Shown here: piece by piece, positions 6,383 through 52,837 of the stretch | Numbering within the stretch: position 1 is the first letter of the stretch | Layout: each line of letters opens with the position of its first letter | Source of the DNA: Candidatus Pacearchaeota archaeon | GTDB taxonomy: Archaea > Nanobdellota > Nanobdellia > Pacearchaeales > GW2011-AR1 | Direction: 5' to 3' | Assembly (NCBI GenBank): GCA_018303845.1 | Contig: JAGVXH010000005.1 | Location: forward strand, 6,665 to 70,664 | DNA: 64,000 nucleotides | Made by a program: the position numbers and the translations under genes | Notes under the pieces: model-generated | What the model was told of the DNA's origin: nothing | Databases searched by the model: none | What the model saw: the letters and a program-made list of their open reading frames with translations, nothing else

Positions 6383-6389
6383 GGAACAA

Positions 6390-6421
6390 CCCAAACCCCC
6401 AAACCCCCAAACCCCCAAACC
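6390..6421. repeat. Short tandem repeat (AAACCCCC)x3 plus partial, just upstream of the giant gene start
   Basis: Read directly from the sequence. Confidence 0.85.
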
Positions 6422-6446
6422 ACCACCATGAATAAAATTTTCAATT

Positions 6447-33800: not shown

Positions 33801-34388
33801 ATGCCCATTACAACAGAGGAAGCCAATAAAATCAAAGAACACCTTCTAACCCAACTAGACAACTTCCCAGAAGACAAACGAGAACAAATCGCAGAACAAA
33901 TCAATTCAATGTCAGACGAACAAATCGAAGCTTTCGTTAAACAAAACAAACTAACTCATCTCGGTGGACAATGCATCTTCTGTTCAATTATAGCAAACAA
34001 AACCAAGTCCTACAAAATAGCCGAAGATAAAGACAACATAGCAATCCTAGAACTTATGCCAATAAGTAAAGGGCACTCTCTCATCGTACCAAAAGAACAT
34101 CTAGAAAAAACCTCAGAATCAACAAACTCCCTAGTGCAAGAAGTATCAAAAAAATTAAAGAAAAAATTCTCGCCACAAGAAATCAAAATCAACGAAATAA
34201 AAATAATGGGCCATGCACTCCTGGAAATAATTCCCATATACGGGGATGAGACCGAAAAAAGACAAGCCTCAGAAGAAGAGCTAAAATCCCTCCAAGAAGA
34301 AATACTAAAACCCTCAGAAATCAAAATAGAAAAACCTCAGGAAATCAAAATAGAAGAAATCCCAATCCTCCCTCCAAGAATACCCTAA
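33801..34388 (+). CDS. HIT-family protein (degenerate histidine triad)
   Basis: CIFCSII, PISKGHSLIVPKEH; the triad region reads GHALLEIIP. Confidence 0.8.
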   Translation: MPITTEEANKIKEHLLTQLDNFPEDKREQIAEQINSMSDEQIEAFVKQNKLTHLGGQCIFCSIIANKTKSYKIAEDKDNIAILELMPISKGHSLIVPKEHLEKTSESTNSLVQEVSKKLKKKFSPQEIKINEIKIMGHALLEIIPIYGDETEKRQASEEELKSLQEEILKPSEIKIEKPQEIKIEEIPILPPRIP

Positions 34389-35209
34389 ATCCCAAACAGC
34401 CCCAAAAACCAACCCTTCAAAAAAACATATCCTAAAAACGCAATCAAAAATGCCGGAACAAACGGCAACCCTTCCTTAATCATAACCCTCTTCTCCTTCC
34501 TCAATAACTCAATATCATCTAGCGACAACCCATCCCAATTCGCCTTAACAACTCTTCGTCCAACCTTAACATCTTCAACCAACCAATCCCCCTCTCGAAG
34601 TTCAAAACCACTAACTTCCCTAATCATCGAAACATTTTCGAGCCCCTTAGCAAAAACATAAAGAAACGGAAAAATAAAAAGACAAACTCCAATCAAGAAA
34701 AAAATAAAATTTTTAACACCAAAAATCATCAAAACAGATGCCAACAAAACAACTCCAACAAGCCATCTCTTTTCGCTAACCAGCCTTCCCATTTCCGCAT
34801 TAATTTTATCTCGATTCAAATACCATAAAACACCAGAATAACAAAGCCCATAGACAGATCCCGCGACCATCAAAAACAAACAAAAAATTCCAACATTAAT
34901 TACCGATTCATAAAAACTAGCACCCAAAAAAAACACCGTCATCGCAAACAACAACTTCGCATCCCCCCCAGCAAAAACCCGACCATAATAAAAAATATTC
35001 ATAATAACAAACATAATTACCAATAAAAACCCAACATGAAAAATAATATCCAACTCATCTCTCAAAATTGCACCATAAAAAACAAAGACCAAACTAGAAA
35101 CAAGCAAAAACAAATTCAACCAATTATCAACCTCACGCCTTTTCAAATCCTGCATACTAGCAACAACAATCCCACAAAAAAACAACCAAAACAAAAACCC
35201 AAACTCCAT
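34385..35209 (-). CDS. Prepilin peptidase (A24 family, PibD/FlaK-like)
   Basis: ASMQDLKRREVDN and FAGGDAKLL aspartate motifs; C-terminal GLPFVPAF. Confidence 0.92.
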   Translation of the reverse strand: MEFGFLFWLFFCGIVVASMQDLKRREVDNWLNLFLLVSSLVFVFYGAILRDELDIIFHVGFLLVIMFVIMNIFYYGRVFAGGDAKLLFAMTVFFLGASFYESVINVGIFCLFLMVAGSVYGLCYSGVLWYLNRDKINAEMGRLVSEKRWLVGVVLLASVLMIFGVKNFIFFLIGVCLFIFPFLYVFAKGLENVSMIREVSGFELREGDWLVEDVKVGRRVVKANWDGLSLDDIELLRKEKRVMIKEGLPFVPAFLIAFLGYVFLKGWFLGLFGI

Positions 35210-35284
35210 TTATCCCAACCTATCCTCATTAATTAAATGCACAACAATAACAGAAATCATAATACAAAAAACAAATCTCTTTAT

Positions 35285-35482
35285 TTAATACTTTCTCTTC
35301 TTAACCTTGCCAAAACCTTTTTTCTTTTCTGACAAAACCTTCCCCATCTTATCCACCTTCTCACCCTCAACCTCATCAACATTAGCACTCCGAAACTTTC
35401 CTCCTACCTTATACCCACGATTAATCCGCTTCCTCTTCAAATCACCCTTCGTCGTCCGCTTATCACATCCACCAAAATCCAT
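35285..35482 (-). CDS. Small basic hypothetical protein at the end of the pilin operon
   Basis: Start overlaps the upstream stop; Lys-rich. Confidence 0.5.
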   Translation of the reverse strand: MDFGGCDKRTTKGDLKRKRINRGYKVGGKFRSANVDEVEGEKVDKMGKVLSEKKKGFGKVKKRKY

Positions 35483-36045
35483 TACTTCAAAACCTCCACA
35501 ACATACTTCCCACTTTTTCGTGTAATCAAATATTCTCTATCAAAAACAAAATCATATTCAACGGGAAAACCAATCTTCACATCTTCCGAAACTTTAAGCA
35601 AACCTCTTTTCCCAGTTTCCTGTCTTTTCAAAACCAAACCATCACTAACTTCCTCGACAGAATACAAAACATCTCTAAAAAAACCATTCTCATCAAATCC
35701 AGTCCCAACCTCTACCTTAGAACCTCTCCAAAACAAATCCTTCAAAATAAAATCCTTCATCTCTTGACTTAAACCCGAAACAAACTCTTTCTCAAATTTC
35801 TCCTTGTCAATCCCACTCTTCTCAACCGAGTCCAACACCAACTCTTTTTCTCTCATCTCAAAAATATCCAACTCATCTCTAATCTCCAAAACAGCAAGCG
35901 GAGAAACTAGAGCAATACTAAGTTTATTCTGATGATTAGAATAAGACAAAAGAACCATCCCGCATAAAACCAAAGTCAACAAAACAATAGGAATCGCCAT
36001 AAAAACCCCGCCCCTTTTATCTCGACAAAAATTAACTCTACCCAT
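35482..36045 (-). CDS. Class III signal peptide (pilin-like) protein
   Basis: Reassigned start MGRVNFCRDKRG|GVFMAIPIVLLTLVLCG. Confidence 0.75.
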   Translation of the reverse strand: MGRVNFCRDKRGGVFMAIPIVLLTLVLCGMVLLSYSNHQNKLSIALVSPLAVLEIRDELDIFEMREKELVLDSVEKSGIDKEKFEKEFVSGLSQEMKDFILKDLFWRGSKVEVGTGFDENGFFRDVLYSVEEVSDGLVLKRQETGKRGLLKVSEDVKIGFPVEYDFVFDREYLITRKSGKYVVEVLK

Positions 36046-36319
36046 TCTCAAAACCTCCAGCAACAAGAGCATCATCAACATCATAATCTCCAGCGACATA
36101 AAACCGCGCCTTAACCAACCTCTCATAATCCTCATTCATATAAATAAAAAATTCTCCCTCTTCTTCACTCTCTCCAAAATAATTAGCCAAGACAGGCTCC
36201 TCTGCAAAAATCTTAAACGGCTCACTCAAAAGAATAAATCCTCCAAGAATAATCGCAACAAGAATAATCGCAAAAAACATAGAAATAAGTGTCCCAAGTT
36301 GTCCCTTCTTACTTTTCAT
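36038..36319 (-). CDS. Class III signal peptide (pilin-like) protein
   Basis: MKSKKG|QLGTLISMFFAIILVAIILG. Confidence 0.8.
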   Translation of the reverse strand: MKSKKGQLGTLISMFFAIILVAIILGGFILLSEPFKIFAEEPVLANYFGESEEEGEFFIYMNEDYERLVKARFYVAGDYDVDDALVAGGFENG

Positions 36320-36848
36320 AATTAATCAAAACCTCCACCTTAACAAAACCATCCCTAGTCACTCCATTCTCGAAAACAAACGCCTTATACTCATCACTAA
36401 AATAGCCAGGATTATACTTCGCAATCTTTTCAACATTCTCATTATTCCATCCGCTAACCGCATTCCCAGTAACAACCACCTTCTCGAACAAATCCCTAAC
36501 CCAAAGTAACCCCTCATCTCCATCCTTTAGATAAACTTTCCTAGCATCACTATCAACCTCAACCCCAACATAAATCCTTTCACTCTCTTCAATCCCACAA
36601 TGCCTCAAAATAAAACTTCTATCTTCTTCCTTAATATTATCCAAATTCAAAACACCCTCAGGGAATAAACACTCCACAATCGCCCTACCAAGTAATAAAG
36701 ACTCAGCATCTCGAACGCTAATATCATAAGCATAATAAACAGAAGAGGCCCCAAAAATAACAACCGCAATGGCCGAAATCAAAACCAAAACCGGAACCAT
36801 CTCAACAATATCGCCAACCCCGCTTCCTCGTTTATTCATCCAAAACAT
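36309..36848 (-). CDS. Class III signal peptide (pilin-like) protein
   Basis: MNKRG|SGVGDIVEMVPVLVLISAIAVVIF. Confidence 0.75.
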   Translation of the reverse strand: MFWMNKRGSGVGDIVEMVPVLVLISAIAVVIFGASSVYYAYDISVRDAESLLLGRAIVECLFPEGVLNLDNIKEEDRSFILRHCGIEESERIYVGVEVDSDARKVYLKDGDEGLLWVRDLFEKVVVTGNAVSGWNNENVEKIAKYNPGYFSDEYKAFVFENGVTRDGFVKVEVLINYEK

Positions 36849-36888
36849 CCTCCATGTTTAATCCAACTTCTTTAAATCGCCAAGCCCC

Positions 36889-36958
36889 CAGCGAAGCTGA
36901 GCTTTTCCACATCGTGAGCTTTTCCACATCGTGAGCTTTTCCACATAGTGAGCTTTTC
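36889..36958. repeat. CAGCGAAGCTG mini-hairpin followed by the 17-mer tandem repeat TGAGCTTTTCCACAT(C/A)G x3.6
   Basis: Units at 36898, 36915 and 36932, partial at 36949. Confidence 0.93.
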
Positions 36959-36983
36959 TGAAAATGAAAATTTTCCTCTTTCA

Positions 36984-37343
36984 TCATTTAACTCTAACCA
37001 CAAATTTATCTAAATCCTCTTCAACAAAAACTTCATTACTAGAAAAATAAGGATACCCCTTACTAGAAGGAAGCCCATCAACCTTAACATAAATTCTCCC
37101 ATCTCTGACCTCGACCCCATCAACTAACCCATTCAAACTCTTTTTCACAATCTCAAAACTAAACCCACTCTCACTAGCATCAATCAAAAGCGCCAACTCT
37201 TTTTCCAAAACCTGCTGTTTAATTCCTCTCGCCTCAAGCCTTCCCTCTAGTGCAAGAAAAAAAACAGCAAATAACAATCCAACTAAAATAATCTGAATAA
37301 CAGCCTTAGATAAAATATCCCCCTTCTTACCAAATCGTCTCAT
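36984..37343 (-). CDS. Class III signal peptide (pilin-like) protein
   Basis: MRRFGKKG|DILSKAVIQIILVGLLFAVFF; ATGA coupling to the upstream gene. Confidence 0.8.
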   Translation of the reverse strand: MRRFGKKGDILSKAVIQIILVGLLFAVFFLALEGRLEARGIKQQVLEKELALLIDASESGFSFEIVKKSLNGLVDGVEVRDGRIYVKVDGLPSSKGYPYFSSNEVFVEEDLDKFVVRVK

Positions 37344-38323
37344 CCGGGAATTCCCTCCCATTCATCACAAAAACCAACGCTAGCAGATTCTATCTCATCA
37401 ACCCTCTTCTCATATTCAATCCAATTTTTTAATTGCAAAAATTCCCAAAAACTCGCAGATGGACTAAAAATAAAATTATTCTGCACTTCCTTAAACGAAT
37501 CATCTTTTTGTCCAGATTGAAAATAAAATAAATAGGGGACATATTCGCCAAACCCTTTCGACTCACCCACAACCAATTGAATACCCGCAACAACACCATA
37601 ATTAATCATCAAATCTCCCTCGTCAATATTAAACCTCTCTGGCAGAGAAACATTAATACTACTCATCTTCGCCTCAAAAGTTACCCCATTAGCCCTATTC
37701 ACCAAGTCAACACTAGCCCAATCCCACTTCTTACTTTCAACACTAAAATCTTCTCCATTTAAATTAAAAGGAACAGCATTTCCAAAATTAAGAGCCGAAA
37801 AACTTTTTCCAGAATCCTGCAAATAAGAATAATAAGTAAAACCTTCTTTCATTTTCAAATCCAAAGCATCCTTAATATTAATCTCAACCTTATTATCCCG
37901 AGCATATTTCTTCGCCTCGTCCGTAAAATGAATTCTAGCACACGGAACACATACACTCGATTTAAAAAATTTAGCAGGAAACACATTCAAATCTCCATTC
38001 CCATAAAGGTTCCAACATTCTGCCATAGACTCTGCAATCTTCTCTTGAGCAACCTTAACATTTCTAACATCCGCCTCACTCACCTCAACAACCATCGTTT
38101 TACATTTCAAAGGGAAACTAGATTTAAATTCAAGCTCATCTGCCCCAAGTCCAGAGTCGGGAAGCGTCGCCCTCAACTGAACACTCTGCCAACAAACCTC
38201 CTTATCTCCCTCGTCACCAACCCAAAACTCCTGATAAATAAAAAAAATCGAAATAGCCAAAACCAACACTCCAAGTATCAAATACAAAAGAATCCCATAC
38301 ATATAGTCCCCCTTCTTATCCAT
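37340..38323 (-). CDS. Class III signal peptide (pilin-like) Cys-rich protein
   Basis: MDKKG|DYMYGILLYLILGVLVLAI; C..SV, PLKC, IAESMAECW..YG.G, CVPCARI.F. Confidence 0.8.
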   Translation of the reverse strand: MDKKGDYMYGILLYLILGVLVLAISIFFIYQEFWVGDEGDKEVCWQSVQLRATLPDSGLGADELEFKSSFPLKCKTMVVEVSEADVRNVKVAQEKIAESMAECWNLYGNGDLNVFPAKFFKSSVCVPCARIHFTDEAKKYARDNKVEINIKDALDLKMKEGFTYYSYLQDSGKSFSALNFGNAVPFNLNGEDFSVESKKWDWASVDLVNRANGVTFEAKMSSINVSLPERFNIDEGDLMINYGVVAGIQLVVGESKGFGEYVPYLFYFQSGQKDDSFKEVQNNFIFSPSASFWEFLQLKNWIEYEKRVDEIESASVGFCDEWEGIPG

Positions 38324-38409
38324 AAACAAGAAACCCAAACCAACTTAATAAAACTTACCCAGCCCAAACATCCATAAAAAACCCCAACCAAAAACCCAAA
38401 ACCTCTCAA

Positions 38410-38820
38410 CAAAAATCCGTGCTAATCCGTGAACTATTTTTTATTAACCAAACAACCTCAATCCCAAAAACGAAAATTCGCGTACATTCGCGCAAATTCA
38501 CGGCTAAATAATTCTCCATCACTCCCCAAGTCCCCATTATTTTACCAATCTACAACAAACAAAACCATCATCTCTCCATGAGAAATTATGCGTGTCGAAG
38601 ACACCATAATTTTTTATGGAACCCAATCTCTAATGTCTAATGTCTAATCTCTAATGTCTAATCCTTATTCCAATCCGTGCTAGTCCGTGAGTAAATAATT
38701 AACAACCATTCCCAAAAAAATCCATGTAATCCATGTTCTAATTTTCCCCAAGCCCACCAAGTCAACCCTTACATCACCCAAACAAAATCCGCGTAATCCG
38801 TGTAATCTGCGGCCAAATAA
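38410..38820. repeat. Repeat-rich intergenic region: five clusters of degenerate 9-10-mers, one cGAAg hairpin (38575-38624) and (TAAT(G/C)TC)x5
   Basis: AATCCGTGCTAATCCGTG, ATTCGCGTACATTCGCGCAAATTCACGG, AATCCGTGCTAGTCCGTG, AATCCATGTAATCCATG, AATCCGCGTAATCCGTGTAATCTGCGG. Confidence 0.85.
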
Positions 38821-38945
38821 ATAACCAAACAAAAACTTACCCAGCAGCCCTAGAAACAATATTCCGTATAGCAAAACCAACAGCAACAATAACCAGAATA
38901 ACCAATATCCATTTAATAGTCTCACCCGAAACCAATTCCCCCCGC

Positions 38946-39473
38946 TTACTTAGTGGAAAAAACATAGCCTCCTCCATCTTTCCAAATCTCAACCCGACCA
39001 CCCTCAACAATCTCCCATGTACCAGAACTCAAATCACTAGCATCAATACTATGCACACTGCCAACAATACTCCGAGCAGACATACTCAAATCCAAACACT
39101 CTCTACAATAATTTTGCTCATCCTCTCCATCCCAATAACAAACACAAATCACATTATCCCCAATCTTCTTATTCTTAAAATATTCCTCTCCTTCAACATC
39201 ACCAAAACTAGCAACACTGCCAAAATAAACCAAATAAAACTTCATATCCTTATCCCCCCTATCAAACATAATAACTTCGCCAACCCCGCCCTTATCCGCA
39301 ATACCAACCCCTTCCTCTATAACCTTCAAATATCCCTCACTAATTTTATCGGCTTCATCATACAAACCATAAAAACTAACCGCAAAAATAATCAAAACAG
39401 CAACAACAGCAACAGCAATAATAAGCTCAATAGCAGAATCACTAACCACCTCTCCTCTTTTCTCCATCAACAT
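38946..39473 (-). CDS. Class III signal peptide (pilin-like) protein
   Basis: MEKRG|EVVSDSAIELIIAVAVVAVLIIF; CVC...C..C. Confidence 0.8.
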   Translation of the reverse strand: MLMEKRGEVVSDSAIELIIAVAVVAVLIIFAVSFYGLYDEADKISEGYLKVIEEGVGIADKGGVGEVIMFDRGDKDMKFYLVYFGSVASFGDVEGEEYFKNKKIGDNVICVCYWDGEDEQNYCRECLDLSMSARSIVGSVHSIDASDLSSGTWEIVEGGRVEIWKDGGGYVFSTK

Positions 39474-41290
39474 CGCCTATCCAAAAATTTAGAAATAACA
39501 CTGGCCCTATAAACCTCATCAAAAAAATACTTACCAAGTCTATAAGTCCCCTCATCTCCACTCTCAATCCAACTAGAACCATTCCACGTAACAAGCAACA
39601 CCGGATAATATTCCAAATCAACTCTATGAAAAGCATCATTAACCCAAAACTCAAAATCACTTACAGTCTTTCCTGCCCCAGACTGCTTCAACCCAAACTT
39701 AGATTCTCCCTTTGAAAAACTTAAAACTGCCTTCCCTTCACTTTGCTCAACTCCAACAACAAACTCTTCACCCTTCAAAACAACTTTCTCCCCAGCAAAA
39801 GACTTCTTCAATGCCTCAATATCCGAACCAGAAACACTAGAAGAAACAAGAAGTCTCGTACGCAATCCAGCAAAAATATCTTTCAATCTCGCCAAATCAG
39901 CCTCACTATCCAACTCACCAGAGTCCCCATAATTCTCAGCCGAAACAAAATTTTCATTTTCCAAAACCTTGTAAAACGCAACCTCATACCCAGCATCCTC
40001 CTGACTCATCTTATTTATCCCAAATCTCCATTCCCTCCAAACATTATCAACATCTCCTTTGTGCCTTCCATAAATCTCCGCAAGCATTTTTTCCACAACA
40101 ATCTTATACATCATCTTATCCTTATCGCTATTCAAATCCCCACTTCCCCCATAATCATATCTAGAGACATCCTCCCCAGTCTTAGGATCCTTCTTATCCC
40201 TAGGCATATCCTCTCCCCCCCATTTCAAAAAAGTATTTCCCTGCTCAACAAACCTTTCAAGATATCGCTTCTCCCTGTCATCCCAATTCATTCCTTCCTT
40301 TTTCAAATACCCTTGAGCCAAACTTTTAGTCAACTGAAGCGGGCCATAAGCCGTAGAAGAAGAACCATCTATCTTTGTCCTAATCCAAGGATCATAGCCA
40401 TCTTTCAACCGACCGCTATTATAATCAAAATATCCCCTATGTTCCGCAGCCATAACAGCATCATAAAGAGTCTCCGTTTTCAGATACTCACTCTTCACCT
40501 TCTTATCTTCAACTTTCTCTCCAAAAAGCAAACTCTCTAATCCCTTGCCCTCACCCTTCAAGTACTCAACCCCAACCTTATTCTCAGAAAGTCTCCAATT
40601 AACCTTATCATCATTAAAAATATCTTTAACCTCATCATAAAACAAAGTCAAAGCCTCATCGTCATTATCAATCTCCCTAACAAACTTTCCATTTTTCCAA
40701 AATTCCCAAATACCATTTTGCCAACGTAATTCAACATTCGCATCTCCACCACTTCCATCCCCAATTAAACTAAACTGCATAGTGGAGCCTTCATCCATTA
40801 AATCCCTAACATCAACACTTTGCAAAATACCAATCCCGACATGATAAGCCTCCCAATCAAACAACGCAGAATCTTCACTACCAACAATCAAATTATTATA
40901 TTCTACCCATTCCCCATTTGTCAATTTCCTAAACTTTCCTTTCATCATCTCATAATCATCCAAACCACCTCCCTCAAATGTACAAGTCCTATCACGACAC
41001 TGCTTAAACCCAATATCGTCGTCTTTAATACCCAACTTCTTCAACATCTCACTTCCCAAAACAAAATCTGAAATCCTATAATCGATACACTCCTCAAAAG
41101 GCCCTCCGTTATTACCTAGCGACATCAACATACCTAAAACCTCATTTGCCTTTCCCCCAATCTCCTCTATTTCAGGAATTATCCCATTCCCAATAAGAAA
41201 AGAAAGAAAAAGCAAAACCACAACTAAAATAATAATTTTAATAAGTCTGTTAAAGGCCTCATTCCCCTTTTTCCCATTCAGCAAATTCAT
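39467..41290 (-). CDS. Class III signal peptide (pilin-like) protein with an internal lysozyme-fold (SLT/GH23-like) domain
   Basis: MNLLNGKKG|NEAFNRLIKIIILVVVLLF; internal LYDAVMAAEH...SSSTAYGPLQLT...GDVDNVWREWRFG...Y at ~39960-40480. Confidence 0.72.
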   Translation of the reverse strand: MNLLNGKKGNEAFNRLIKIIILVVVLLFLSFLIGNGIIPEIEEIGGKANEVLGMLMSLGNNGGPFEECIDYRISDFVLGSEMLKKLGIKDDDIGFKQCRDRTCTFEGGGLDDYEMMKGKFRKLTNGEWVEYNNLIVGSEDSALFDWEAYHVGIGILQSVDVRDLMDEGSTMQFSLIGDGSGGDANVELRWQNGIWEFWKNGKFVREIDNDDEALTLFYDEVKDIFNDDKVNWRLSENKVGVEYLKGEGKGLESLLFGEKVEDKKVKSEYLKTETLYDAVMAAEHRGYFDYNSGRLKDGYDPWIRTKIDGSSSTAYGPLQLTKSLAQGYLKKEGMNWDDREKRYLERFVEQGNTFLKWGGEDMPRDKKDPKTGEDVSRYDYGGSGDLNSDKDKMMYKIVVEKMLAEIYGRHKGDVDNVWREWRFGINKMSQEDAGYEVAFYKVLENENFVSAENYGDSGELDSEADLARLKDIFAGLRTRLLVSSSVSGSDIEALKKSFAGEKVVLKGEEFVVGVEQSEGKAVLSFSKGESKFGLKQSGAGKTVSDFEFWVNDAFHRVDLEYYPVLLVTWNGSSWIESGDEGTYRLGKYFFDEVYRASVISKFLDRRC

Positions 41291-41427
41291 CGCCCAAACC
41301 TCAACAAATCCTTAATGCTACCTAAAAGCTCCACGCCTTTCCCACTAAGCAAAAACCCAACGGCCCAAACCATCACAACTAAAATAATCACAAAAATAAT
41401 CATCTTAACAATCTCCTCTATTTCCAT
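41287..41427 (-). CDS. 46-aa Flp/pilin-like membrane peptide
   Basis: Manual translation MEIEEIVKMIIFVIILVVMVWAVGFLLSGKGVELLGSIKDLLRFGR; its stop overlaps the next start (ATGA). Confidence 0.7.
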   Translation of the reverse strand: MEIEEIVKMIIFVIILVVMVWAVGFLLSGKGVELLGSIKDLLRFGR

Positions 41428-41513
41428 ACATCGTCAACAAAAAACAAATTAATAAAGATTCCTAATATCTTCAAGAACAAATTACTCTACAAAAAAACAA
41501 ATACTACTAAATT

Positions 41514-41906
41514 TTATGAAGCAGCTTTAACTTCCGGCTCGCAAGTAAACTTTTCATCACATTTCTTAAATCCTAAACCAGAAGGAAGCAATACACCATC
41601 AATAAAGCCACCAACACTGAATTGATGGCAACTTCCACTAATCTTCTTCAAATCACCTTTATCATCAAAAAACCTTAAATCTTTCTTCTCGCTACACCAA
41701 GAACTTTTCTCATTGTTATTACAATCATTTTCACAATCTGCAATCCTCAACTGAACATTAGATCCACTAGTCCTTCCAGCAATCTGATCCCACATATTAG
41801 TCCATCCAGTACTAAATCCCCAAATCAACAAAACCAAAACAACAATCCCTAAAACAATAGCAACAATAGTTCCAAGCGTCATCTCCTGTCCTTTCTTATT
41901 CACCAT
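41514..41906 (-). CDS. Class III signal peptide pilin (candidate major pilin)
   Basis: MVNKKG|QEMTLGTIVAIVLGIVVLVLLIWGF; own TTTATAAA box; six Cys. Confidence 0.82.
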   Translation of the reverse strand: MVNKKGQEMTLGTIVAIVLGIVVLVLLIWGFSTGWTNMWDQIAGRTSGSNVQLRIADCENDCNNNEKSSWCSEKKDLRFFDDKGDLKKISGSCHQFSVGGFIDGVLLPSGLGFKKCDEKFTCEPEVKAAS

Positions 41907-41972
41907 CTTAACAATCCAACAACTTCATTATTTATAAAACTTCCCAAACCCTTTGCGGCATCAATAAATTGC

Positions 41973-44150: not shown

Positions 44151-44234
44151 ATTTCACCTCCACAATCCCAAAACACCAATACTCTTAAACTTTATCCTCG
44201 CAAAAATCATATTAAACAATTTTAAATAATAAAC

Positions 44235-47200
44235 CTATGACTTCAATTTCAAAAATTGTTTTTTAACATTCTTCCAATAAATTATTACAAAAATCAACAA
44301 GACAACAAGAACAACAATCAATCCCGCAATAAATCTATTCCCGCCTATCGTATCAAAAACTACATTCCCAGTAATAATTCCCTTATCCATTTCCTCCGTC
44401 TTCACAACAGGCATTTCTTTGGCAGGTACCACGTCGACACCAGCCACAGCTCCAGTAGATGCAACCGGAACACTCTCACTAATAGACGTCAAAAGAATCT
44501 CAGCCCTACCAGCAGAAACACTCTTAAGATAAACATCCAAATCATAAACTCCATTACCATCAACATCCACCTTCTTTGTCTGCCCGGGAACAAGGTCAAA
44601 AGTAACAGGGGTACTAGAAACCGTAATCGTCACCTTATCGCCAGATATACTATCGACTTTCAATGTATGACTCTGTCCAGCCAAATTAAAATCAACCTTG
44701 TAACCTCTGCCTAAAGAAATATCATACCCTGTAGAAAGATCTGTTGCAGAAGGACTATATGTGGGATAGCTTCCACTACTACCTGAAGAACCAGAAGAAG
44801 CAGCATCTACAGTATAAGTAGTTTCAGCTAATACCGAATTTCCAGCATAATCAACAGCGGTACAATTCGTAGTAATGGTCCCAGCAACAGAAGTGGAGGG
44901 ATTCGTAGTATAAGTGATCGAACTTACTCCCGAAGATGCATCAGTTGCAGAACAGGTACAAGTAACGGTGCCACCGATTTGAACAGCAGAATCGCTACAG
45001 GCAAAAGTTATAACAGGATCAACACTATCTAAAAGAATAGTATAACGCCCACTGTTATTCGCATTTCCAAGAGTATCATTTGAAGTTGCATTATAATAAT
45101 AAACTCCATCAGTCAGATTAGTAAAATTAATAGATGTGGGGGAACTTGTACCCAGGCTTGAATTAATTAAAACTACAGAGGAATTATATAATCTAATAAA
45201 AATAGTACTCAATGTCCCTGAATCTGCAGCCGTTACATTAATAAAAATATTTGAGGTGGAAACATTAGAATTATTCGCACTAGGAGACACAAATACTATA
45301 GAAGAAGGACTCGTGGTATCTATATTAATAGTTCTCGTAGCCGTAGAATTAATATTCCCAGCAATGTCTACAATAGTCACATTGTAAGTATGAGTAGTAT
45401 CACTTAACCCTGTCCAATTAATTGTATGAGTAGCATCAGTGTATGTCGTAGTATTAACAATTCCCGTCGTATTATATAATCTAAATGTTATATTAACTTC
45501 ATTTACTTCTGTAACACTCGCATTGACATAAATATTAGAGACGGACACATTAGCATTATCAACAGAAGTTCCAGTTCCATAATCAATTGCTGGAGTCGTA
45601 GAATCTATTTGAACAACATATGAATCATTTAGCCCAAATGTACCCAACGTATCATTTGCATAAACAAAAATTGTATTATTCCCATCTGCTAATCCCGTCA
45701 AAGCAATTAAGCTAGTATTACACCAACCAGAAACATATGCAATTGTTTGGTTAGTTCCATTTGCATTAACAACACAAGCACTTCTGCCAGTACCTTCATT
45801 GGTAAGAGAAATATTTAACGTTAAAGTTTGCAAATTTGTCTTTGTTGTTCCATTTACATAAAGTGGCAAAGAAATTCCAGGAGGAGTTGAAGTAACATTA
45901 CTAACTGAAATAGTATTAGCGATTAATGTAACTTCTTTTTGCCCCAATGCTCTTCCAGTCAAAACTGCACCGTTCTGTAACGCAATAGTTGTTGTATCCG
46001 GCCCGCCTAAAATATTTCCTTTAAACTGAGAAGTTGTTCCAAGCGTTGTTGTTCCAGCAACTGCCCAAAAAATATTACTTGCTTGTGCGCCACCAGAAAG
46101 AACTACACTTGTAGCAGAACTAATATCCAAATTTCCAGATATACTAAAAATCCATACATCGTCAGAATCCCCATAAAGTGTAACATCTGTAGGTATTGTT
46201 ACTCCGGTAGTCCAATCATAAAAACCCGCCACCAAAGTCATTCCTCCAATATTTCCTGTACCTAATTCATTAGCAACAGGATTTGTTCTTCCATTGGCAT
46301 CCGTCCAAGCAGCTTCCATTGCACTTACAGCAGCAGTCAAATCAGCAGGAGTTGTACAATTTAAAGTACTATAGTCAGCCGCATAAACATTCCCTGACAC
46401 TAAAGACGAAGTTGAAAAACATTCTGAAGAATCTAAAGATAATCCAAATCCTTGAATAAAAGATGCAGCAGCTGGGCTCACTCCAATATCTCCAATAATA
46501 GCAGTAGTTCCAGTCGTAGTTATTTGAGTCTTTGAAAGAATTGTAAAATTCGCCGCTGTTCCCAAATCAACTGTTGCTTGTGTATATAACGAACCATTTA
46601 TTTGAACAACATAAGAGTCATTGAGGCCAAAATTATTAAGCGTATCATTTGCATAAACATTAATTGTGTGGTTCCCATTAGCTAGGTTTGTTAAAGCAAT
46701 CGAAGTAGTATTACACCAACCAGAAACATATGAAATTGTTTGATTTGTTCCATTTACATTAATAATGCAAACACTTATGTTCGAACTAGCATCTACAGCT
46801 GAAATATTAAGTGCCAAAGTTTGAAAACTTGTTTTTGTTGTTGCATTTACATATCCTGGCAATGCGATAACTGGTCCTGTCGTATCATTTACCGTTACTC
46901 CTATAGTTGAAACAACAGTCCATCCAGTAGAATTCGTTGTTGTAATAGTAAAATTATAATTTCCTGGACTTGAAGCAGTAGCATTAAACCAAAAATATGC
47001 CAATGTTCCATTTTCTACCAAGCTAACAGTATCATTATTCCAAATTAAAGAAACAGTAGTATTAGAAAATAAAGAGCTAGTAACATTTGTTCCGTTCGAA
47101 TCTGCCGCAAAAGAAAATACACTAGGAAATGTAATATTAACTCCGGTTATATTATCAAGTGTATCTATATTACTAACCGTTATATTATAAACCGACTCAA

Positions 47201-47348
47201 CAGATTCATTAACAGAAAATGCACTAAGGCCACTAGTTGGCGCAACAGTCAAAGCTGCAAAAGCAAAAGTAATAGATAAAAAAATTCCCAAAAATAAAAA
47301 AATTCCCAAAAATAAATTATAATTATTTTTAATTAATCTTTTTTTCAT
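44235..47348 (-). CDS. Large Thr/Ser/Asn-rich surface protein with an ice-binding DUF3494 domain, Ig-like repeats and a C-terminal TM anchor
   Basis: VDLGTAANFTILSKT.IT......I.GDIGVSP, GNVYAADY, VWIF.ISGNL, LSGGAQASNIFW.VAG..TLGT..QFKGNILG, L.GRAL (~45905-46580). Confidence 0.92.
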   Translation of the reverse strand: MKKRLIKNNYNLFLGIFLFLGIFLSITFAFAALTVAPTSGLSAFSVNESVESVYNITVSNIDTLDNITGVNITFPSVFSFAADSNGTNVTSSLFSNTTVSLIWNNDTVSLVENGTLAYFWFNATASSPGNYNFTITTTNSTGWTVVSTIGVTVNDTTGPVIALPGYVNATTKTSFQTLALNISAVDASSNISVCIINVNGTNQTISYVSGWCNTTSIALTNLANGNHTINVYANDTLNNFGLNDSYVVQINGSLYTQATVDLGTAANFTILSKTQITTTGTTAIIGDIGVSPAAASFIQGFGLSLDSSECFSTSSLVSGNVYAADYSTLNCTTPADLTAAVSAMEAAWTDANGRTNPVANELGTGNIGGMTLVAGFYDWTTGVTIPTDVTLYGDSDDVWIFSISGNLDISSATSVVLSGGAQASNIFWAVAGTTTLGTTSQFKGNILGGPDTTTIALQNGAVLTGRALGQKEVTLIANTISVSNVTSTPPGISLPLYVNGTTKTNLQTLTLNISLTNEGTGRSACVVNANGTNQTIAYVSGWCNTSLIALTGLADGNNTIFVYANDTLGTFGLNDSYVVQIDSTTPAIDYGTGTSVDNANVSVSNIYVNASVTEVNEVNITFRLYNTTGIVNTTTYTDATHTINWTGLSDTTHTYNVTIVDIAGNINSTATRTINIDTTSPSSIVFVSPSANNSNVSTSNIFINVTAADSGTLSTIFIRLYNSSVVLINSSLGTSSPTSINFTNLTDGVYYYNATSNDTLGNANNSGRYTILLDSVDPVITFACSDSAVQIGGTVTCTCSATDASSGVSSITYTTNPSTSVAGTITTNCTAVDYAGNSVLAETTYTVDAASSGSSGSSGSYPTYSPSATDLSTGYDISLGRGYKVDFNLAGQSHTLKVDSISGDKVTITVSSTPVTFDLVPGQTKKVDVDGNGVYDLDVYLKSVSAGRAEILLTSISESVPVASTGAVAGVDVVPAKEMPVVKTEEMDKGIITGNVVFDTIGGNRFIAGLIVVLVVLLIFVIIYWKNVKKQFLKLKS

Positions 47349-47562
47349 ACTTTATTGCTACTACAATAAGCTTATCTATTTTCTCACTAAGATATTCGTA
47401 TGTACCCGCGCAAAATTATCAAAGTTAATTTTATACCCTTTGCCAGAATAAATATCACACTCAATAAAAAGTTCAGTCCAAGAAAAAAACATATTAGAGA
47501 ATCACTACTTCAGAATAAATTACAATCATAACCACAGCAGTCACAATTAAAGCTTAAAAGAA

Positions 47563-48558: not shown

Positions 48559-48587
48559 TTTTCTAAATAATTTATCATCTCAATAAT

Positions 48588-48731
48588 TTATTTAGTTTTA
48601 ATCTTGTCCTTAGCTCTTTTTGCCATTTTCCCAATTGCCCTTTTGAGGACTTTCTTCTCTTCGTCCACAATTTCCTCCGTCAAGGGATCTCTCGCAATTG
48701 TTTCAGCAATTGTTTTTAATTGTTTTTTCAT
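48588..48731 (-). CDS. 47-aa basic helical hypothetical protein
   Basis: Manual translation MKKQLKTIAETIARDPLTEEIVDEEKKVLKRAIGKMAKRAKDKIKTK; tight operon spacing. Confidence 0.5.
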   Translation of the reverse strand: MKKQLKTIAETIARDPLTEEIVDEEKKVLKRAIGKMAKRAKDKIKTK

Positions 48732-48733
48732 TT

Positions 48734-49057
48734 TCATTTTAAACTCCTATAGATTAAGCCAATGACATAAAGAAGAACTCCCAAGCCAAGATAAATCATC
48801 CATATTTTAATCATTGGGAAAAAATCATTAATCATTAATCCTATACCTATTAGAAATAATAAAGATCCCAAAAGGACAAACATAAAATATGTTATTTGTT
48901 TTTTTAAAGTAGATTTAAGGAAAGAAAAATCTCCTAACTTCTGAAGCAAATCCTCTGTGTTATCCCCTATAGATTCAAACAATGACCCCACAATCCTATC
49001 AAACAGCAACTTCAAAGGATATGTTTTCTTCATTTTTTTAATTTCTTTTTTCTTCAT
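48734..49057 (-). CDS. Two-TM membrane protein (holin-superfamily-like topology)
   Basis: Amphipathic N-terminus plus two C-terminal TMs. Confidence 0.6.
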   Translation of the reverse strand: MKKKEIKKMKKTYPLKLLFDRIVGSLFESIGDNTEDLLQKLGDFSFLKSTLKKQITYFMFVLLGSLLFLIGIGLMINDFFPMIKIWMIYLGLGVLLYVIGLIYRSLK

Positions 49058-49074
49058 TTTTACCCAAATATAAT

Positions 49075-49233
49075 TTAGCCTGCAATCATTACAGAATTAG
49101 CATCCAATATAACCTCTTTTTGTTCAAATACTCTTTCGTTTAATATTGCACCAATATTAAACACAGCCAACCCATCAACACCAACGACCATTCCTCCAAA
49201 TCCTCCATTTCCAATAATCACACATTTTTTCAT
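49075..49233 (-). pseudogene. 52-aa ORF containing a degenerate DUF3494 C-terminal fragment
   Basis: GAILNERVFEQKEVILDANSV aligns with GAVLTGRALGQKEVTLIANTI of the 1037-aa protein. Confidence 0.5.
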
Positions 49234-49401
49234 ATTTTTATTAATTTTTTAAATTATATATACCTGAAGACGAATATATGTTCACTCTCCACGCCAAAAT
49301 AAATCATAAACCAACCAACTATGCAAATTATTCTAGAACAATCCGTCTCATCTAATTAGATTTCATATCCCTTATTTACTCCAATCATATCTAAAAACTT
49401 A

Positions 49402-49797
49402 TCACATATTCCGACTCAAAACCAAAACTCCGACAACCCCAACCGCAAACAAAATAGCCCCGAATAAACCACTCCCAACATCAGCAAACCCAACAACATT
49501 CCCTGTAATATTCCCAAGTAACATCAGCCCACCCAAAGCAAAAAGAGCAAGCGCCAAAGAATACAAAGCCTTAACCTTCACACGAGGGTCCATATGTTCC
49601 CTAACACTTTTATAATCATAATAGGCTCTTCTCTTTTCAAGTGGGCTCAGATTCTTAACATTCCTTATCCTTCTCTTCACAATCCACTCAGCATTCTCCC
49701 ATTGGCCATTATCAATAAAAGCATAAAGAATCTTCCTATATTGTTCATCTACTTCGCCTCTAGAAATATCACCTAAACCACCAACCATATCAATCAA
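49402..49797 (-). CDS. Hypothetical protein with a C-terminal TM-ITGNVVG-TM module
   Basis: Hydrophobic helices either side of NITGNVVG. Confidence 0.7.
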   Translation of the reverse strand: MIDMVGGLGDISRGEVDEQYRKILYAFIDNGQWENAEWIVKRRIRNVKNLSPLEKRRAYYDYKSVREHMDPRVKVKALYSLALALFALGGLMLLGNITGNVVGFADVGSGLFGAILFAVGVVGVLVLSRNM

Positions 49798-49827
49798 AAC
49801 GATCTTGTCTATATAAAATTAATCATA

Positions 49828-50532
49828 CTAAAAATTTTCCCTCTTATCTCTCTTGGAATAAATTTCACTCCCAAGAATCGCAGATATAGTATATGCTAAC
49901 GCAAACTCACAATAAATAGAAGGAAAAGCAAGCCCCATAGCAGGAAAAATAGAAAGCAAAAGAAGTGGAGCGATAATAGTAACAGTGCCAATAATAATCC
50001 AAAAATAATAAATTTTATGCATATTTCTTTTTTTAATATGTAAAAGAAAAATTACCCCCACTATAAGTATAAACCCAAAATAATAAGTTAAATAAGCAAT
50101 AGATAAAAAAAGATGCTTGGAAGAATACAAAAATGTTTCAACATAAACAAAAAGCCAAGAACAATTAGCATTTAAAATAAAATCTTCTTTAATAAAAACA
50201 ATAAAAGTGACCACTACGGGGAAAACATAAAGAACCCAATTCCAAAATTTAGTATTGGTAAATCTAATCGCCATATGCAAACCAACGGCAGGCAAAAATG
50301 TATATGTCGCAAACCCAACAGATGCCCACAAAAAAGAATTACTAGAAACACAAAGCATAAATTCACTAAACTGATAAAAACCCAAAATATAAACAAAAAT
50401 AGCAGAAAAAACTGGAACCAAATAATTTTTATATCTAAACAAAATAAAACTAGCAACGACAAATTCTACTATTGCAGTAGTCAACGAAACCCATGGAGTA
50501 AAACACATATTAAAATCCAACAATAAAAACAC
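49828..50532 (-). CDS. Seven-TM membrane protein
   Basis: MCFTP..SL start, YQFSEFMLC, FPSIYC; about seven hydrophobic segments. Confidence 0.75.
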   Translation of the reverse strand: MFLLLDFNMCFTPWVSLTTAIVEFVVASFILFRYKNYLVPVFSAIFVYILGFYQFSEFMLCVSSNSFLWASVGFATYTFLPAVGLHMAIRFTNTKFWNWVLYVFPVVVTFIVFIKEDFILNANCSWLFVYVETFLYSSKHLFLSIAYLTYYFGFILIVGVIFLLHIKKRNMHKIYYFWIIIGTVTIIAPLLLLSIFPAMGLAFPSIYCEFALAYTISAILGSEIYSKRDKRENF

Positions 50533-50545
50533 TATTTAAATATTT

Positions 50546-52837
50546 TCAAACCCCTAATTTCTTCGCTTCAACTTCAAGCCACCTCTTCCACTTCGCAAAA
50601 ACGATATCTCCTTTCGGCACTCCAACATCCCCAGTCACCTCATCGCTAATCTGATGAAACGCATTGTTAGACATAACCGTAAAATCCCCTTCTAAAATCT
50701 CAGGCAGATTCTCTCTAATAGAAAAATCTACACTCTCTTGCTTAATCTTAGCACGAAGCAAAACATTATCCCAAACCGCATCCCAGTCCCCAGCCCAACC
50801 CTTAACATTACTTGCAATCTCTTTCATAATCTCCGAATCCCCATTCATCAAATCATCAGTCGCCTCCAACTTATCTCGCTTAACATCGTACTTCATCAAA
50901 TCAACAAATCCCCCTTCGGCCAAAGGGTCCTTGTCCCAATGCTTCCGAACCTCACTAATAGACAAAACCCGTCGCCAAGAATGAAGCCCATCCGCAGTCT
51001 TAATCGGATTAGCGACAACAATAATATCCGTCGCCTTAAAACTCGTAACCGGAACATCCAAGTCATTACAAACTCTATCAAATACAGAATATGGACTTCC
51101 ACCATGAATCGTACCAGCAACAACATTTGCAAGAGCCCCAACCCTCATCGCCTCATACAAAGCCTTCGCCTCACTAGAACGAATCTCTCCAACAATTAAA
51201 GACGAATCGCCCAAACGAAGACTCGCCCGAATCCCTTCCTCTGCAGAAACCTCCGACGATTCACCCCCCAAAGCCGACCGAACCTTCATTGACAAAATAT
51301 CATAATCAAGCTTCCTCATCGCAGACACGGGCAACTCCAGAGTATCTTCAATAGTAATAATTCTCTTATTGGGCATAATCTCCAAAAGCAAAGCCCCTAA
51401 AAGCGAAGTCTTTCCCGACGACCTAGTCCCAGCAACAAGCATCGTCCGTGCCCCATCAATCATAAAACTCAAAAGCCCCGCACTCAAACTATCCATCATC
51501 CCATTCTTAATAAAAAGCGGCAAAGTCCAAGGCTTACTTCTATGTCTTCTCAAAGTATAAGCAAGCCCACCAGCGGACAAAGGCTCCTGAATAATCGCAA
51601 CTCTCGCGCTCACATCCCCAAGCTCCAAATTCGTATCTAATATAGGGTTAGCCTCATCAAGTGCCCGCCCACTAATCATCCTAAACTTCGCAGCCCAAGA
51701 ATCCGCATCCTCCATCGACGGAACCAAATTACTAACACACTCACCAAATTCATTATGCCTAACAAAAATCTTAGACAAACTAACCGGAGCATTAACCATA
51801 ATATCCTGCAAATCCTCATCTTGCAACAACACTTCTAAAACTCCAAACCCAATCGTATGCCGAACCAAAATATTCGCAAGCTTCTTCAAATCCCCATAAC
51901 TCAAAACAACATTCTTGCTTCCAGCCAAATCACTAATCAAATCCCGAGCAACATTATAAAAAACTTGCCGCGTTCTCTCAGGATCGCTAAATTCTTCAGC
52001 AGTCGGTCGATGCTCAATTAAAACATTCCGCGCCAAATTTAAAAGCATATGATGGTCCTCATCTAACAAATATTCAGGCGGAGACAAATGATAAACCAAC
52101 TTTGCCTTATTCGGAACTTTAAAAATACTAACCAAGCTCTCATCGCTCCCACTCGCAATGCTATACTGCTTCACAATCTCGGCATCCGTCGGAATCTTCG
52201 CAACCATCCGCGTGAAAGTAAAATTCGGCATAATATCCGCACGAAAAACCTCTCCATATATCGCCCTATCTCCAACAGAATACGAATCAAAAAAATCCTT
52301 CAACCGTCGAACAAGCTCCAAATCCTCAAACCATCCTTCCAACTTCTCCAGCAACCGAACATAATCACTCTCCCTACTCCTCACACTTTGCCCCTTACCC
52401 CTCTTCACCTGTTGTGCCTTCAACCGAAACAATTTCCCACGCAACTCACGATAAGCCAAAATCGGATCCACAGATAATAACTCATTAACAATCCTATTCA
52501 AAAAAACATAGGCCTCTTCATAATCCTCGCCAAGTCCGCTAAGTCTCTCGGAAGAAACAATCCGCTCCTGCTTCATTAAAAAAGTAACTAATGCAGCAAC
52601 CCCCTGCAACATTCTAACCTGCGAAAAATCATAAGAATAATTTCTCTGCTGCACAAAAACAATCCGCGCAATATTAGACTCCTCGCGAAGCGCATCAATT
52701 GTCCGTCCCATCACTTCCGAAAAATCAACAAGCGACGGAACAATTCGGTCACCCAAATAATTCACATACATCACATTCTCTCCACTGTCCCGAACAACCT
52801 CATAAGAATACAAAGCCGCGTCCCCCTTAAACATCAT
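50546..52837 (-). CDS. Type II/IV secretion (TadA/VirB11-like) ATPase
   Basis: Walker A GTRSSGKT, TIEDTLE, LRLG...IVGEIR, GTIHG. Confidence 0.93.
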   Translation of the reverse strand: MMFKGDAALYSYEVVRDSGENVMYVNYLGDRIVPSLVDFSEVMGRTIDALREESNIARIVFVQQRNYSYDFSQVRMLQGVAALVTFLMKQERIVSSERLSGLGEDYEEAYVFLNRIVNELLSVDPILAYRELRGKLFRLKAQQVKRGKGQSVRSRESDYVRLLEKLEGWFEDLELVRRLKDFFDSYSVGDRAIYGEVFRADIMPNFTFTRMVAKIPTDAEIVKQYSIASGSDESLVSIFKVPNKAKLVYHLSPPEYLLDEDHHMLLNLARNVLIEHRPTAEEFSDPERTRQVFYNVARDLISDLAGSKNVVLSYGDLKKLANILVRHTIGFGVLEVLLQDEDLQDIMVNAPVSLSKIFVRHNEFGECVSNLVPSMEDADSWAAKFRMISGRALDEANPILDTNLELGDVSARVAIIQEPLSAGGLAYTLRRHRSKPWTLPLFIKNGMMDSLSAGLLSFMIDGARTMLVAGTRSSGKTSLLGALLLEIMPNKRIITIEDTLELPVSAMRKLDYDILSMKVRSALGGESSEVSAEEGIRASLRLGDSSLIVGEIRSSEAKALYEAMRVGALANVVAGTIHGGSPYSVFDRVCNDLDVPVTSFKATDIIVVANPIKTADGLHSWRRVLSISEVRKHWDKDPLAEGGFVDLMKYDVKRDKLEATDDLMNGDSEIMKEIASNVKGWAGDWDAVWDNVLLRAKIKQESVDFSIRENLPEILEGDFTVMSNNAFHQISDEVTGDVGVPKGDIVFAKWKRWLEVEAKKLGV

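Follow-up and report, generated by a model that had tools for sequence, protein, structure and literature searches.

Archaeal type IV filaments, exemplified by the Epd pili of Methanococcus and the Aap and Ups pili of Sulfolobus, and the bacterial loci for type IV pili and for type II, III and IV secretion systems, which encode specialised lytic transglycosylases such as VirB1, BfpH and PilT of plasmid R64, are the reference points for the locus described here. This locus is a type IV pilus-like gene cluster, accompanied by genes for candidate murein-cutting proteins, in a 64,000-nucleotide stretch (the window; contig positions 6665-70664 of JAGVXH010000005.1) from the 1.09-Mb, 10-contig, 80% complete assembly GCA_018303845.1 of a Candidatus Pacearchaeota archaeon. 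Pacearchaeota and Woesearchaeota have already been described in print as encoding giant extracellular proteins of the murein-like lytic transglycosylase type (fam00969; Castelle et al. 2021), and the idea of a bacterial host has likewise been published (PMC8204110, PMC9723730, PMC11537232, each in the portions available); in those portions, with supplements outside the search, the words 'pili', 'pilin' and 'pilus' have 0 occurrences. A preprint on Omnitrophota (bioRxiv 10.1101/2023.11.21.568195) places giant 'Archaeovorin' genes beside a type II secretion- and type IV pilus-like system that includes genes for proteins with class III signal peptides, and the abstracts of two studies on episymbiotic Saccharibacteria present type IV pili as a means of host contact in ultrasmall, host-dependent cells (PMC9894109, PMC11623550).

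A sequence-only reading of the window had proposed an undescribed pilus- or Tad-like apparatus armed with wall-lytic domains in a DPANN-type archaeon. The parts list supports a type IV pilus-like gene set in such an organism. The wider claim suggested by the comparative evidence, namely an order-wide type IV pilus-like machine whose pilin-like proteins serve as carriers or partners of murein-lytic modules in an organism that has no murein, stands at even chances. The carriers appear modular: the 607-residue protein of the window has taken up a 225-residue module whose family is otherwise known from tailed phages and from giant or polyvalent proteins, and other carriers hold an SLT domain in 12 other genomes of the order. 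The finding is more general than first thought and the ecological inference less new. A full-text literature search (subscription journals and supplements not covered) turned up neither pilin-lysin fusions nor a class III partner gene for the giants of DPANN archaea, but giant transglycosylases and bacterial hosts have been published, so that the word 'undescribed' is no more than partly true.

The core of the machine consists of a prepilin peptidase, a secretion ATPase and a membrane platform, all encoded on the minus strand, as are the pilin-like array, the giant secreted protein and its 616-residue partner (Table 1). The peptidase and the ATPase, both named by the sequence-only reading, pass their Pfam cut-offs. 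The former is the only A24 match in the genome, also matches NCBIfam FlaK below cut-off (E = 2.8e-6), and displays D21 and G81-G82-D83, of which D21 and D83 are presumably the catalytic Asp pair. For the latter, the closest NCBIfam models are FlaI and TadA, at E = 7e-41 and 8e-38 respectively and below the curated cut-off in each case; it is the most divergent of the genome's three T2SSE ATPases. The 725-residue polytopic protein, previously read as a two-domain platform, gives no match to Pfam T2SSF (PF00482), even in a genome search at E<=10, but the Atlas clusters nearest to it are named GspF-domain or contain T2SSF in 16-21% of their members, some of its homologs are labeled TadB by JGI, and hhalign against the genome's own T2SSF proteins yields a weak pairing at a plausible place (probability 5.9%, E = 0.0065, residues 459-528 only). 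It is accepted here as a divergent platform, an assignment that is not proven. Its database homologs number 2734, with the best 120 at least 68% identical, and it is encoded in 146/150 other genomes of the order, one copy each at 45-77% identity, which indicates that the system is core to the order. In two genomes of the same genus the ATPase gene lies about 2 kb from the platform gene. In G452 and G319, two genomes of this genus, the platform is followed by a small basic protein of 119-122 residues and then by the ATPase, and the pilin array is located elsewhere, so the parts of the system have been shuffled within one genus. Two further type IV pilus-like loci lie outside the window (C2, ∼213-224 kb; C4, ∼32-42 kb), each with canonical T2SSF proteins, its own T2SSE ATPase and its own class III-leader genes; the source genome thus has three such systems and a single A24 peptidase, the window copy.

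The array is transcribed from 44150 to 34385 in the order 725-residue platform, 130 residues, 46-residue transmembrane peptide, 607, 175, 46-residue mini-protein, 327, 125, 179, 93 and 187 residues, and 274-residue peptidase. With the exception of the transmembrane peptide (41287-41427), every open reading frame (ORF) from platform to peptidase encodes a short basic leader, [KR][KR]G, followed by a hydrophobic helix. The eight class III leaders announced by the sequence-only reading are all present, and the 46-residue mini-protein at 38837-38977 has the same leader. The loose leader pattern occurs in 160/10455 open frames genome-wide, with the convincing cases clustered in a few loci; set against this background, nine leaders in one array are judged not to be chance. 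The transmembrane peptide was considered as a further pilin-like protein and rejected, since it lacks the KRG leader in the source genome; its longer orthologs in other families have one. The 130-residue protein is a likely candidate for the major subunit: together with its 110-150-residue orthologs it has a strongly conserved N-terminus (KKG, then Q-E/Q-M/L-TLGTI...GFSTGW), and a single pattern found it in 11/15 sources. The remaining array proteins look like minor-pilin-like carriers. Pfam and NCBIfam searches of all pilin-like array proteins returned nothing meaningful; matches to SusD_RagB (E = 0.0016-0.015, below cut-off) and EutQ were dismissed as chance.

Comparison of the DNA downstream of the platform in 20 genomes (10 of the same genus, 10 of other genera or families) reveals an array of class III-leader genes in conserved order in 7/10 same-genus and 7/10 more distant loci: a small pilin, a large variable protein, ∼165 residues, a mini-protein of 32-47 residues, ∼290, ∼118, ∼167, ∼92 and ∼190 residues, and the peptidase. 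Flp-type pilins carry the motif G/xxxxEY. The leaders of the array (KKG/QEMTLGTI and similar) have no E at +5 and no Y at +6, the platform is one 725-residue protein instead of separate TadB and TadC, and the TadA model scores below cut-off, features that do not fit the Tad/Flp subtype. In mid-array, a 500-base gap (38338-38837) is devoid of convincing ORFs and contains several short tandem repeats, e.g., AATGTCT x5.4 at 38625-38662.

Relatives provide the clearest cases of lytic modules on this array. An SLT domain is found in 74/150 other genomes of the order; among control genomes the same search gave matches in 8/14, all bacterial, and in 0/4 archaeal ones. When SLT places were compared by hand with platform places, 11 genomes had a same-strand match at a distance of 0.5-3.8 kb downstream of the platform, and G434 had one 1.1 kb upstream; the matches of G516 and G511, ∼4 kb upstream on the opposite strand, are outside this set of 12. 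All 12 platform-adjoining ORFs have, by eye, a class III-type leader and helix, and the Pfam SLT cut-off is passed by 10/10 of those scanned (E = 2e-22 to 2e-8). The SLT-bearing pilin-like proteins of G267, G431, G483 and G434 (∼250-370 residues) match residues 3-112 of the 175-residue 'position 3' protein of the window (E = 2e-8 to 3e-3), and the ∼272-residue versions of G518 and G519 apparently use another scaffold. Separate lineages have thus fused lytic modules to different pilin-like carriers of the array. The domain swapping that the sequence-only reading predicted therefore exists, on class III proteins beside the platform gene of 12 relatives, but within the genus the same scaffold has none (0/7), and the swaps are found in other scaffolds and families. 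Elsewhere in the order, SLT domains occur in giants or in ordinary secreted proteins with a signal peptide (Sec/lipoprotein-type).

In the window itself, the candidate lytic module sits in the 607-residue protein. Four full-length homologs of this protein are known from a word-indexed database, and 400 genomes of the phylum yielded one weak N-terminal match only; Pfam domains were found in 0/3 metagenomic homologs of its scaffold. A 450-residue ortholog in G510 aligns with residues 15-233 and 459-607 and has ∼35 residues in place of 234-458, which argues for the insertion of a domain into a conserved scaffold. The inserted module is defined by the motifs AAE283HR .. PWIR304T .. S312xAYGPxQ319 .. 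YDYG381G .. W421R, and a search against 1.84 billion representatives places it in 334 clusters (E<=1e-3), in proteins of 130-350 residues, about 600 residues, 800-930 residues (domain C-terminal) and up to 3241 residues. Across 148 aligned domains, Glu283 is present in 147/148, and Arg304, Ser312, Gly316, Gln319 and Gly381 are almost invariant. SLT domains have the motif order E-S, GLMQ, AYNxG. The Glu, S-x-AYGP-x-Q and YDYGG motifs of the module follow the same order, and the best hhalign pairing with an SLT alignment is in catalytic register, with Glu on Glu and AYGPxQ on GLMQ. The family co-occurs with an SLT domain in one protein (P0129) and with the polyvalent-protein domain LPD38 in another (P0172), and the Atlas model of the module region matches two viral clusters over residues 264-445, the model being of low confidence. 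Six Vibrio podophages (Zobellviridae) encode a 240-residue member, whose gene closes their structural/late block; in MG592419.1 (25722-26444; host Vibrio breoganii; five related records) it is annotated as a hypothetical protein, and no annotated lysin is found among features 1-44 of 73 of that phage. A lysozyme-like muralytic domain is the somewhat more probable identity of the module. The lysozyme fold assigned to the protein by the sequence-only reading is not confirmed: its basis is a motif, and sequence and profile searches of Pfam, PHROG and the PDB gave no match.

The giant secreted protein and the class III protein beside it, announced as a second operon, were both confirmed. A full-length ortholog of the 616-residue protein (33-41% identity, E = 1e-117 to 0; shared start ..[KR]xQVTIF(V/I)II..) is encoded directly upstream of 12/12 SLT-bearing giants from other genomes, so that the pairing is not a matter of chance; PDB profile searches of the 616- and 607-residue families gave nothing significant. 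The giant's ORF extends 496 bases past the left edge of the window, leaving its last ∼165 residues outside. Its last 177 residues form a Pfam SLT domain (PF01464, CAZy GH23; E = 2.1e-11; score 43.8 bits, cut-off 21.3), located outside the window at contig positions 6387-6617, with the motifs ..LMQQES.. and AYGLMQV and the catalytic Glu present; this is the only SLT match in the source genome. The second lytic module lies inside the window. Alone, this stretch reaches T4 lysozyme chains in the PDB by phmmer (E = 6e-4); a profile of the giant's copy and seven relatives matches T4 lysozyme over residues 10-151 with the catalytic Glu aligned (E = 2.3e-10), and 4/8 members of the family match PF00959. 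The domain is therefore considered GH24-like. Both the SLT and the GH24-like domains are, at the sequence level, lytic in identity. Two independent wall-degrading enzymes had been claimed, and the giant does carry two such domains, but they are not the pair originally named, and the clearest of them, SLT, is outside the window.

The lytic ends of the giants are modular: P0275 has the GH24-like domain only, P0276 SLT only, and the window giant both. Over 13 giants, conservation is high at residues 54-350 and 1154-1550 and lowest in the last 600 residues. Of 400 other genomes of the order, 12 encode relatives of the GH24-like domain, either within giants (two cases) or within small secreted proteins. 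The latter (210-259 residues, signal or transmembrane start; G456, G631, G506, G739, G450, G754, G666) keep the full E..D..T motif (FEGRRNKVYD..PTIGIGH) and are thus free-standing versions of the giant's module. Two more cassettes, each a short 'QVTIFI'-type class III gene followed by a large secreted protein, are found outside the window at C2:99142-106809 (249 + 598 residues and 254 + 1273 residues); the 249- and 254-residue proteins are homologous to the N-terminus of the 616-residue protein (E = 5e-7 and 4e-9), and the two large partners are homologous to each other (E = 2e-46).

The organism can fairly be read as a small (about 1.1 Mb) DPANN-type archaeon of a Pacearchaeota-type lineage, because its rRNA operon matches archaeal small-subunit (1308.6 bits) and large-subunit (714.7 bits) models, close platform homologs come from sources named 'Candidatus Pacearchaeota archaeon', 'Nanoarchaeota archaeon' and 'archaeon', and the stretch is present on contigs of groundwater and soil metagenome runs. 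A near-identical stretch occurs on run contigs from 13 studies, some of which are possibly its source. The source genome, 80% complete, has no match for Mur ligases or the penicillin-binding protein (PBP) transpeptidase; the Mur ligase search was positive in 13/14 control genomes, three archaea among them. These results make the archaeon's own wall an unlikely target of the lytic domains. M23 peptidases likewise gave no match in the source genome, with NlpC/P60, amidases and LysM outside that search.

Table 1. Features of the pilus-like locus and of the giant-protein operon (window coordinates; a slash marks the end of the leader; aa, residues; TM, transmembrane)
Feature	Position	Strand	Basis
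Giant secreted protein, 2316-2345 aa by start codon (2316 from database start)	1..6454	-	Signal peptide, conserved N-terminus and core, variable lytic C-terminus
GH24/T4-lysozyme-like domain of the giant, aa ∼1855-2040 (WE1864G .. VYVIDGKKHIGVGH)	422..979	-	8-sequence profile vs PDB
Class III-leader protein, 616 aa (MVEIRRKKG/QVTIFIILAVLIVG..), partner gene of giant	6447..8297	-	Leader sequence; orthologs upstream of giants
A24 prepilin/preflagellin-type signal peptidase, 274 aa	34385..35209	-	Pfam PF01478, E 7.5e-9, 36.4 bits vs cut-off 26.5
Class III-leader protein, 187 aa from Met31 of 217-aa ORF (..DKRG/GVFMAIPIVLL..)	35482..36045	-	Sequence; same-genus orthologs of 183-203 aa in the same position
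Class III-leader protein, 93 aa (MKSKKG/QLGTLISMFFAIILV..)	36038..36319	-	Relatives encode orthologs of 87-97 aa
Class III-leader protein, 179 aa (MFWMNKRG/S..)	36309..36848	-	Leader sequence, orthologous loci
Class III-leader protein, 125 aa (..FGKKG/DILSKAVIQIILVGLL..)	36984..37361	-	Orthologs share QQVLEKE motif
Class III-leader protein, 327 aa (MDKKG/DYMYGILLYLILGVLVL..)	37340..38323	-	Leader sequence, orthologous loci
Mini class III-leader peptide, 46 aa (MEEAMFFPLSKRG/ELVSGETIKWILVILVIVAVGF..; first residue after leader E)	38837..38977	-	Orthologs of 32-47 aa in the same position
Class III-leader protein 'position 3', 175 aa	38946..39473	-	Orthologs in other families of the order carry SLT
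Class III-leader protein 'position 2', 607 aa, conserved scaffold with inserted module	39467..41290	-	Alignment to G510 ortholog
Inserted module, aa 234-458 (225 aa), core aa ∼283-435; candidate lysozyme-like catalytic domain	39917..40591	-	Motif and family conservation
TM peptide, 46 aa, C-terminal ..IKDLLRFGR, no KRG leader in source genome	41287..41427	-	Ortholog in the same place in G645
Class III-leader protein, 130 aa, major pilin candidate (MVNKKG/QEMTLGTIVAIVLGIVVLVLLIWGFSTGW)	41514..41906	-	Conserved N-terminus; first gene after platform
Divergent platform (GspF/TadB/FlaJ-like), accepted but not proven; polytopic membrane protein, 725 aa	41973..44150	-	Atlas neighbors, homolog names, weak hhalign
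Secretion/assembly ATPase (FlaI/TadA/VirB11-like), 763 aa	50546..52837	-	Pfam T2SSE PF00437, E 4.2e-16, 59 bits vs cut-off 24.9

Outside these features, the 1037-residue surface protein encoded at 44235-47348 (minus strand) begins with a signal peptide and ends in a transmembrane anchor; it combines an ice-binding-like domain (PF11999, E = 2e-62) with a Big_13 domain and is very rich in N-x-S/T sequons. A HIT-family protein (33801-34388, plus strand; PF01230, E = 6.5e-7) converges on the peptidase gene with a 4-base stop overlap. GC skew is strongly negative throughout positions 1-64000 (-0.18 to -0.58 in 4-kb windows), weaker at 8-20 kb, where genes are on the plus strand, and its sign never flips.

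A mechanism consistent with these parts can be outlined. The single A24 peptidase would trim the leaders of all class III proteins, and the lysin-bearing proteins would then be built into or onto a filament, or their pilin-like helix would keep them at the cell surface. The 616-residue protein may tether the giant, or export or escort it. On contact, the enzymes would cut the peptidoglycan of neighboring bacteria, the purpose being attachment, breaching or the harvesting of wall fragments, the last of which is conceivable given that the archaeon has no matches for peptidoglycan synthesis genes. In its full form the proposal describes a contact apparatus that breaches bacterial walls, in which minor pilin-like subunits act as interchangeable carriers of horizontally acquired murein-cutting modules (SLT and a new phage-type family) and a class III-tethered giant contributes a multi-lysin; this we offer tentatively, as a doubtful possibility.

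A number of observations weigh against a lysin-bearing pilus machine. The system is not always armed, since the module of the 607-residue protein occurs in just 1/400 other genomes of the order (G645, same genus, same gene order) and Pfam domains were found in 0/7 same-genus position-2 orthologs or neighbors; the 607-residue protein thus does not belong to the core of the system. None of the 11 other same-genus genomes in the sample had an SLT match. In 6/20 compared loci the pilin array is not beside the platform. The ATPase had been placed in one locus with the array, and it does share the minus strand and lie close to the platform in the two same-genus genomes mentioned above, but here it is ∼6.4 kb away, separated by unrelated genes, among them those for an AI-2E transporter and for the 1037-residue surface protein with the ice-binding-like domain. 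In archaea, class III leaders are also found on surface proteins that form no filament. The T4-type muramidase claimed for the giant is retained at the profile level, but the giant's own copy has no Pfam match, PF00959 at E<=10 included. Relative to the catalytic triad of T4 lysozyme (Glu11, Asp20, Thr26), this copy keeps the Glu (WEG), has a shifted Asp (VYVID) and places His at the position of Thr26 (KHIGVGH). No RNA runs are among the sequencing runs listed for the 607-residue gene, and the gene absences reported above are provisional, because the genome is 80% complete.

The module of the 607-residue protein might also be no wall hydrolase at all, but a phage-derived domain of other function (binding, or an unrelated enzyme), in which case the pilus locus of the source genome would be unarmed and the giant alone lytic. 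This is doubtful, although a serious contender. It agrees with the failure of the 38-sequence profile to find any Pfam, PHROG or PDB similarity, with the absence of Pfam lysozyme matches, SLT included, for the protein, the module and the short members of its family (0/38), with the purely hypothetical annotation of the Vibrio phage homologs, and with the low confidence of the Atlas model (pLDDT 0.47). The hhalign comparisons of the module with SLT (P 0.043 and 0.13, against 0.25-0.8 for unrelated controls) and with the GH24-like family were not significant; however, the same comparison failed to link SLT with the GH24-like family, and it is therefore too blunt to decide the kinship of the module. 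A non-hydrolytic role is harder to reconcile with the invariant Glu, the SLT-like motif order and the register of hhalign on the catalytic motifs, with the co-occurrence of the domain with SLT and with a polyvalent-protein domain, and with its place as the closing gene of the structural/late block of a podophage that has no annotated lysin among features 1-44 of 73. Moreover, the equivalent array of relatives carries a true SLT domain.

A different objection accepts the enzymes and denies the filament: the class III leaders would provide peptidase-dependent anchoring to the membrane or surface, the domains would break down loose peptidoglycan debris in groundwater as a source of amino sugars and amino acids, and the pilus would serve adhesion or DNA uptake. 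We regard such scavenging as unlikely, and it cannot be separated from a lysin-bearing pilus by sequence alone. The model of BasE, a bindosome assembly ATPase, also finds the ATPase of the window (E = 1.5e-20, below cut-off), the order has many SLT proteins that are of the Sec/lipoprotein type or giants and not pilin-like, and the lysin-bearing class III proteins are large (250-607 residues), which is unusual for filament subunits. Use of wall fragments would also fit the abundance of muramoyl-tetrapeptide carboxypeptidase in Pacearchaeota, as reported in PMC11537232. On the other hand, the genes of the fused proteins are embedded in the ordered pilin array, flanked by those of the candidate major pilin and the peptidase, and different scaffolds of that array are armed in different lineages, which suggests that the array is where these proteins function; the likeness to archaeal sugar-binding 'bindosome' proteins would be an analogy. 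Action on a murein- or pseudomurein-like wall of the archaeon's own, making space for pilus assembly as VirB1/BfpH-type transglycosylases do in bacteria, is very improbable. SLT genes in secretion and pilus loci are indeed the bacterial norm, but the source genome lacks the Mur ligase and PBP transpeptidase matches noted above, and the patchiness of SLT (74/150) beside a near-universal platform (146/150) indicates that the machine does not need it. Least credible of all is an assembly or binning artefact that brought in lytic genes from a bacterium or phage. The domains are bacterial or phage in origin, but their in-frame fusion partners are scaffolds that the archaeal order conserves, the lytic genes and the core machine share one 84-kb contig, the same arrangements recur in many independent genomes, and the near-identical stretches come from the 13 studies cited above.

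A contact apparatus with interchangeable lytic carriers, if it is real, would be the first concrete molecular mechanism for cross-domain episymbiosis or predation between DPANN archaea and bacteria. We know of no host for Pacearchaeota-type DPANN archaea. The question of bacteria versus archaea as hosts has been raised in print from giant transglycosylase genes only. The present analysis ties lytic domains physically to class III or pilin-like proteins, through in-frame fusions in a near-universal pilus locus and through a conserved partner gene upstream of the giants. A loose genomic hint is thereby turned into testable statements on the presence of the proteins on filaments, on Glu283 as the activity residue and on the substrates. 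The module family, unannotated and widespread (334 clusters, Vibrio phages too), is in its own right a candidate for a new muralytic family.

Compared with the archaeal type IV pili and Tad-like systems, the locus shares an A24 peptidase, a FlaI/TadA-type ATPase, a polytopic candidate platform and class III subunits in clustered genes. It differs in a platform too divergent for Pfam T2SSF, despite the two loci with canonical T2SSF in the same genome, and in an array of nine leader proteins that includes several large globular carriers, some with peptidoglycan-lytic modules; from Tad/Flp systems it differs in leaders without the Flp-type motif. Among lysozymes, the GH24-like stretch of the giant (∼1855-2040) is alignable to residues 10-151 of the T4 enzyme with the substitutions given above. 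The module family of the 607-residue protein resembles phage virion-associated and polyvalent lysins in occurring in phages and with LPD38, and has no detectable sequence link to GH24. The Saccharibacteria system is bacterial, and the abstracts of PMC9894109 and PMC11623550 mention no lysin-bearing pilins. The window giant fits the fam00969 giants (about 2300 residues, C-terminal SLT), for which a bacterial target has likewise been inferred, and goes beyond their description in its second, GH24-like module, its variable modular lytic end and its class III partner.

With the bacterial VirB1, BfpH and R64 PilT enzymes the system has in common an SLT-family domain inside the locus of an envelope-spanning machine. 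Those enzymes are separate periplasmic proteins that open the producer's sacculus, whereas here the domain follows a pilin-type leader and helix in one and the same protein, in an organism with no matches for murein synthesis genes. The Omnitrophota, as described in the preprint, provide a parallel in layout: their secreted proteins are very large, include some with SLT, are encoded next to a pilus- or secretion-type system that has small class III-leader genes, and are read as wall-attack tools. The direction is reversed, however. Omnitrophota are bacteria thought to prey on archaea with proteins 10-40 times larger, whereas in the present case an archaeon would be directed against bacterial murein, with lysins also fused to the pilin-like proteins themselves.

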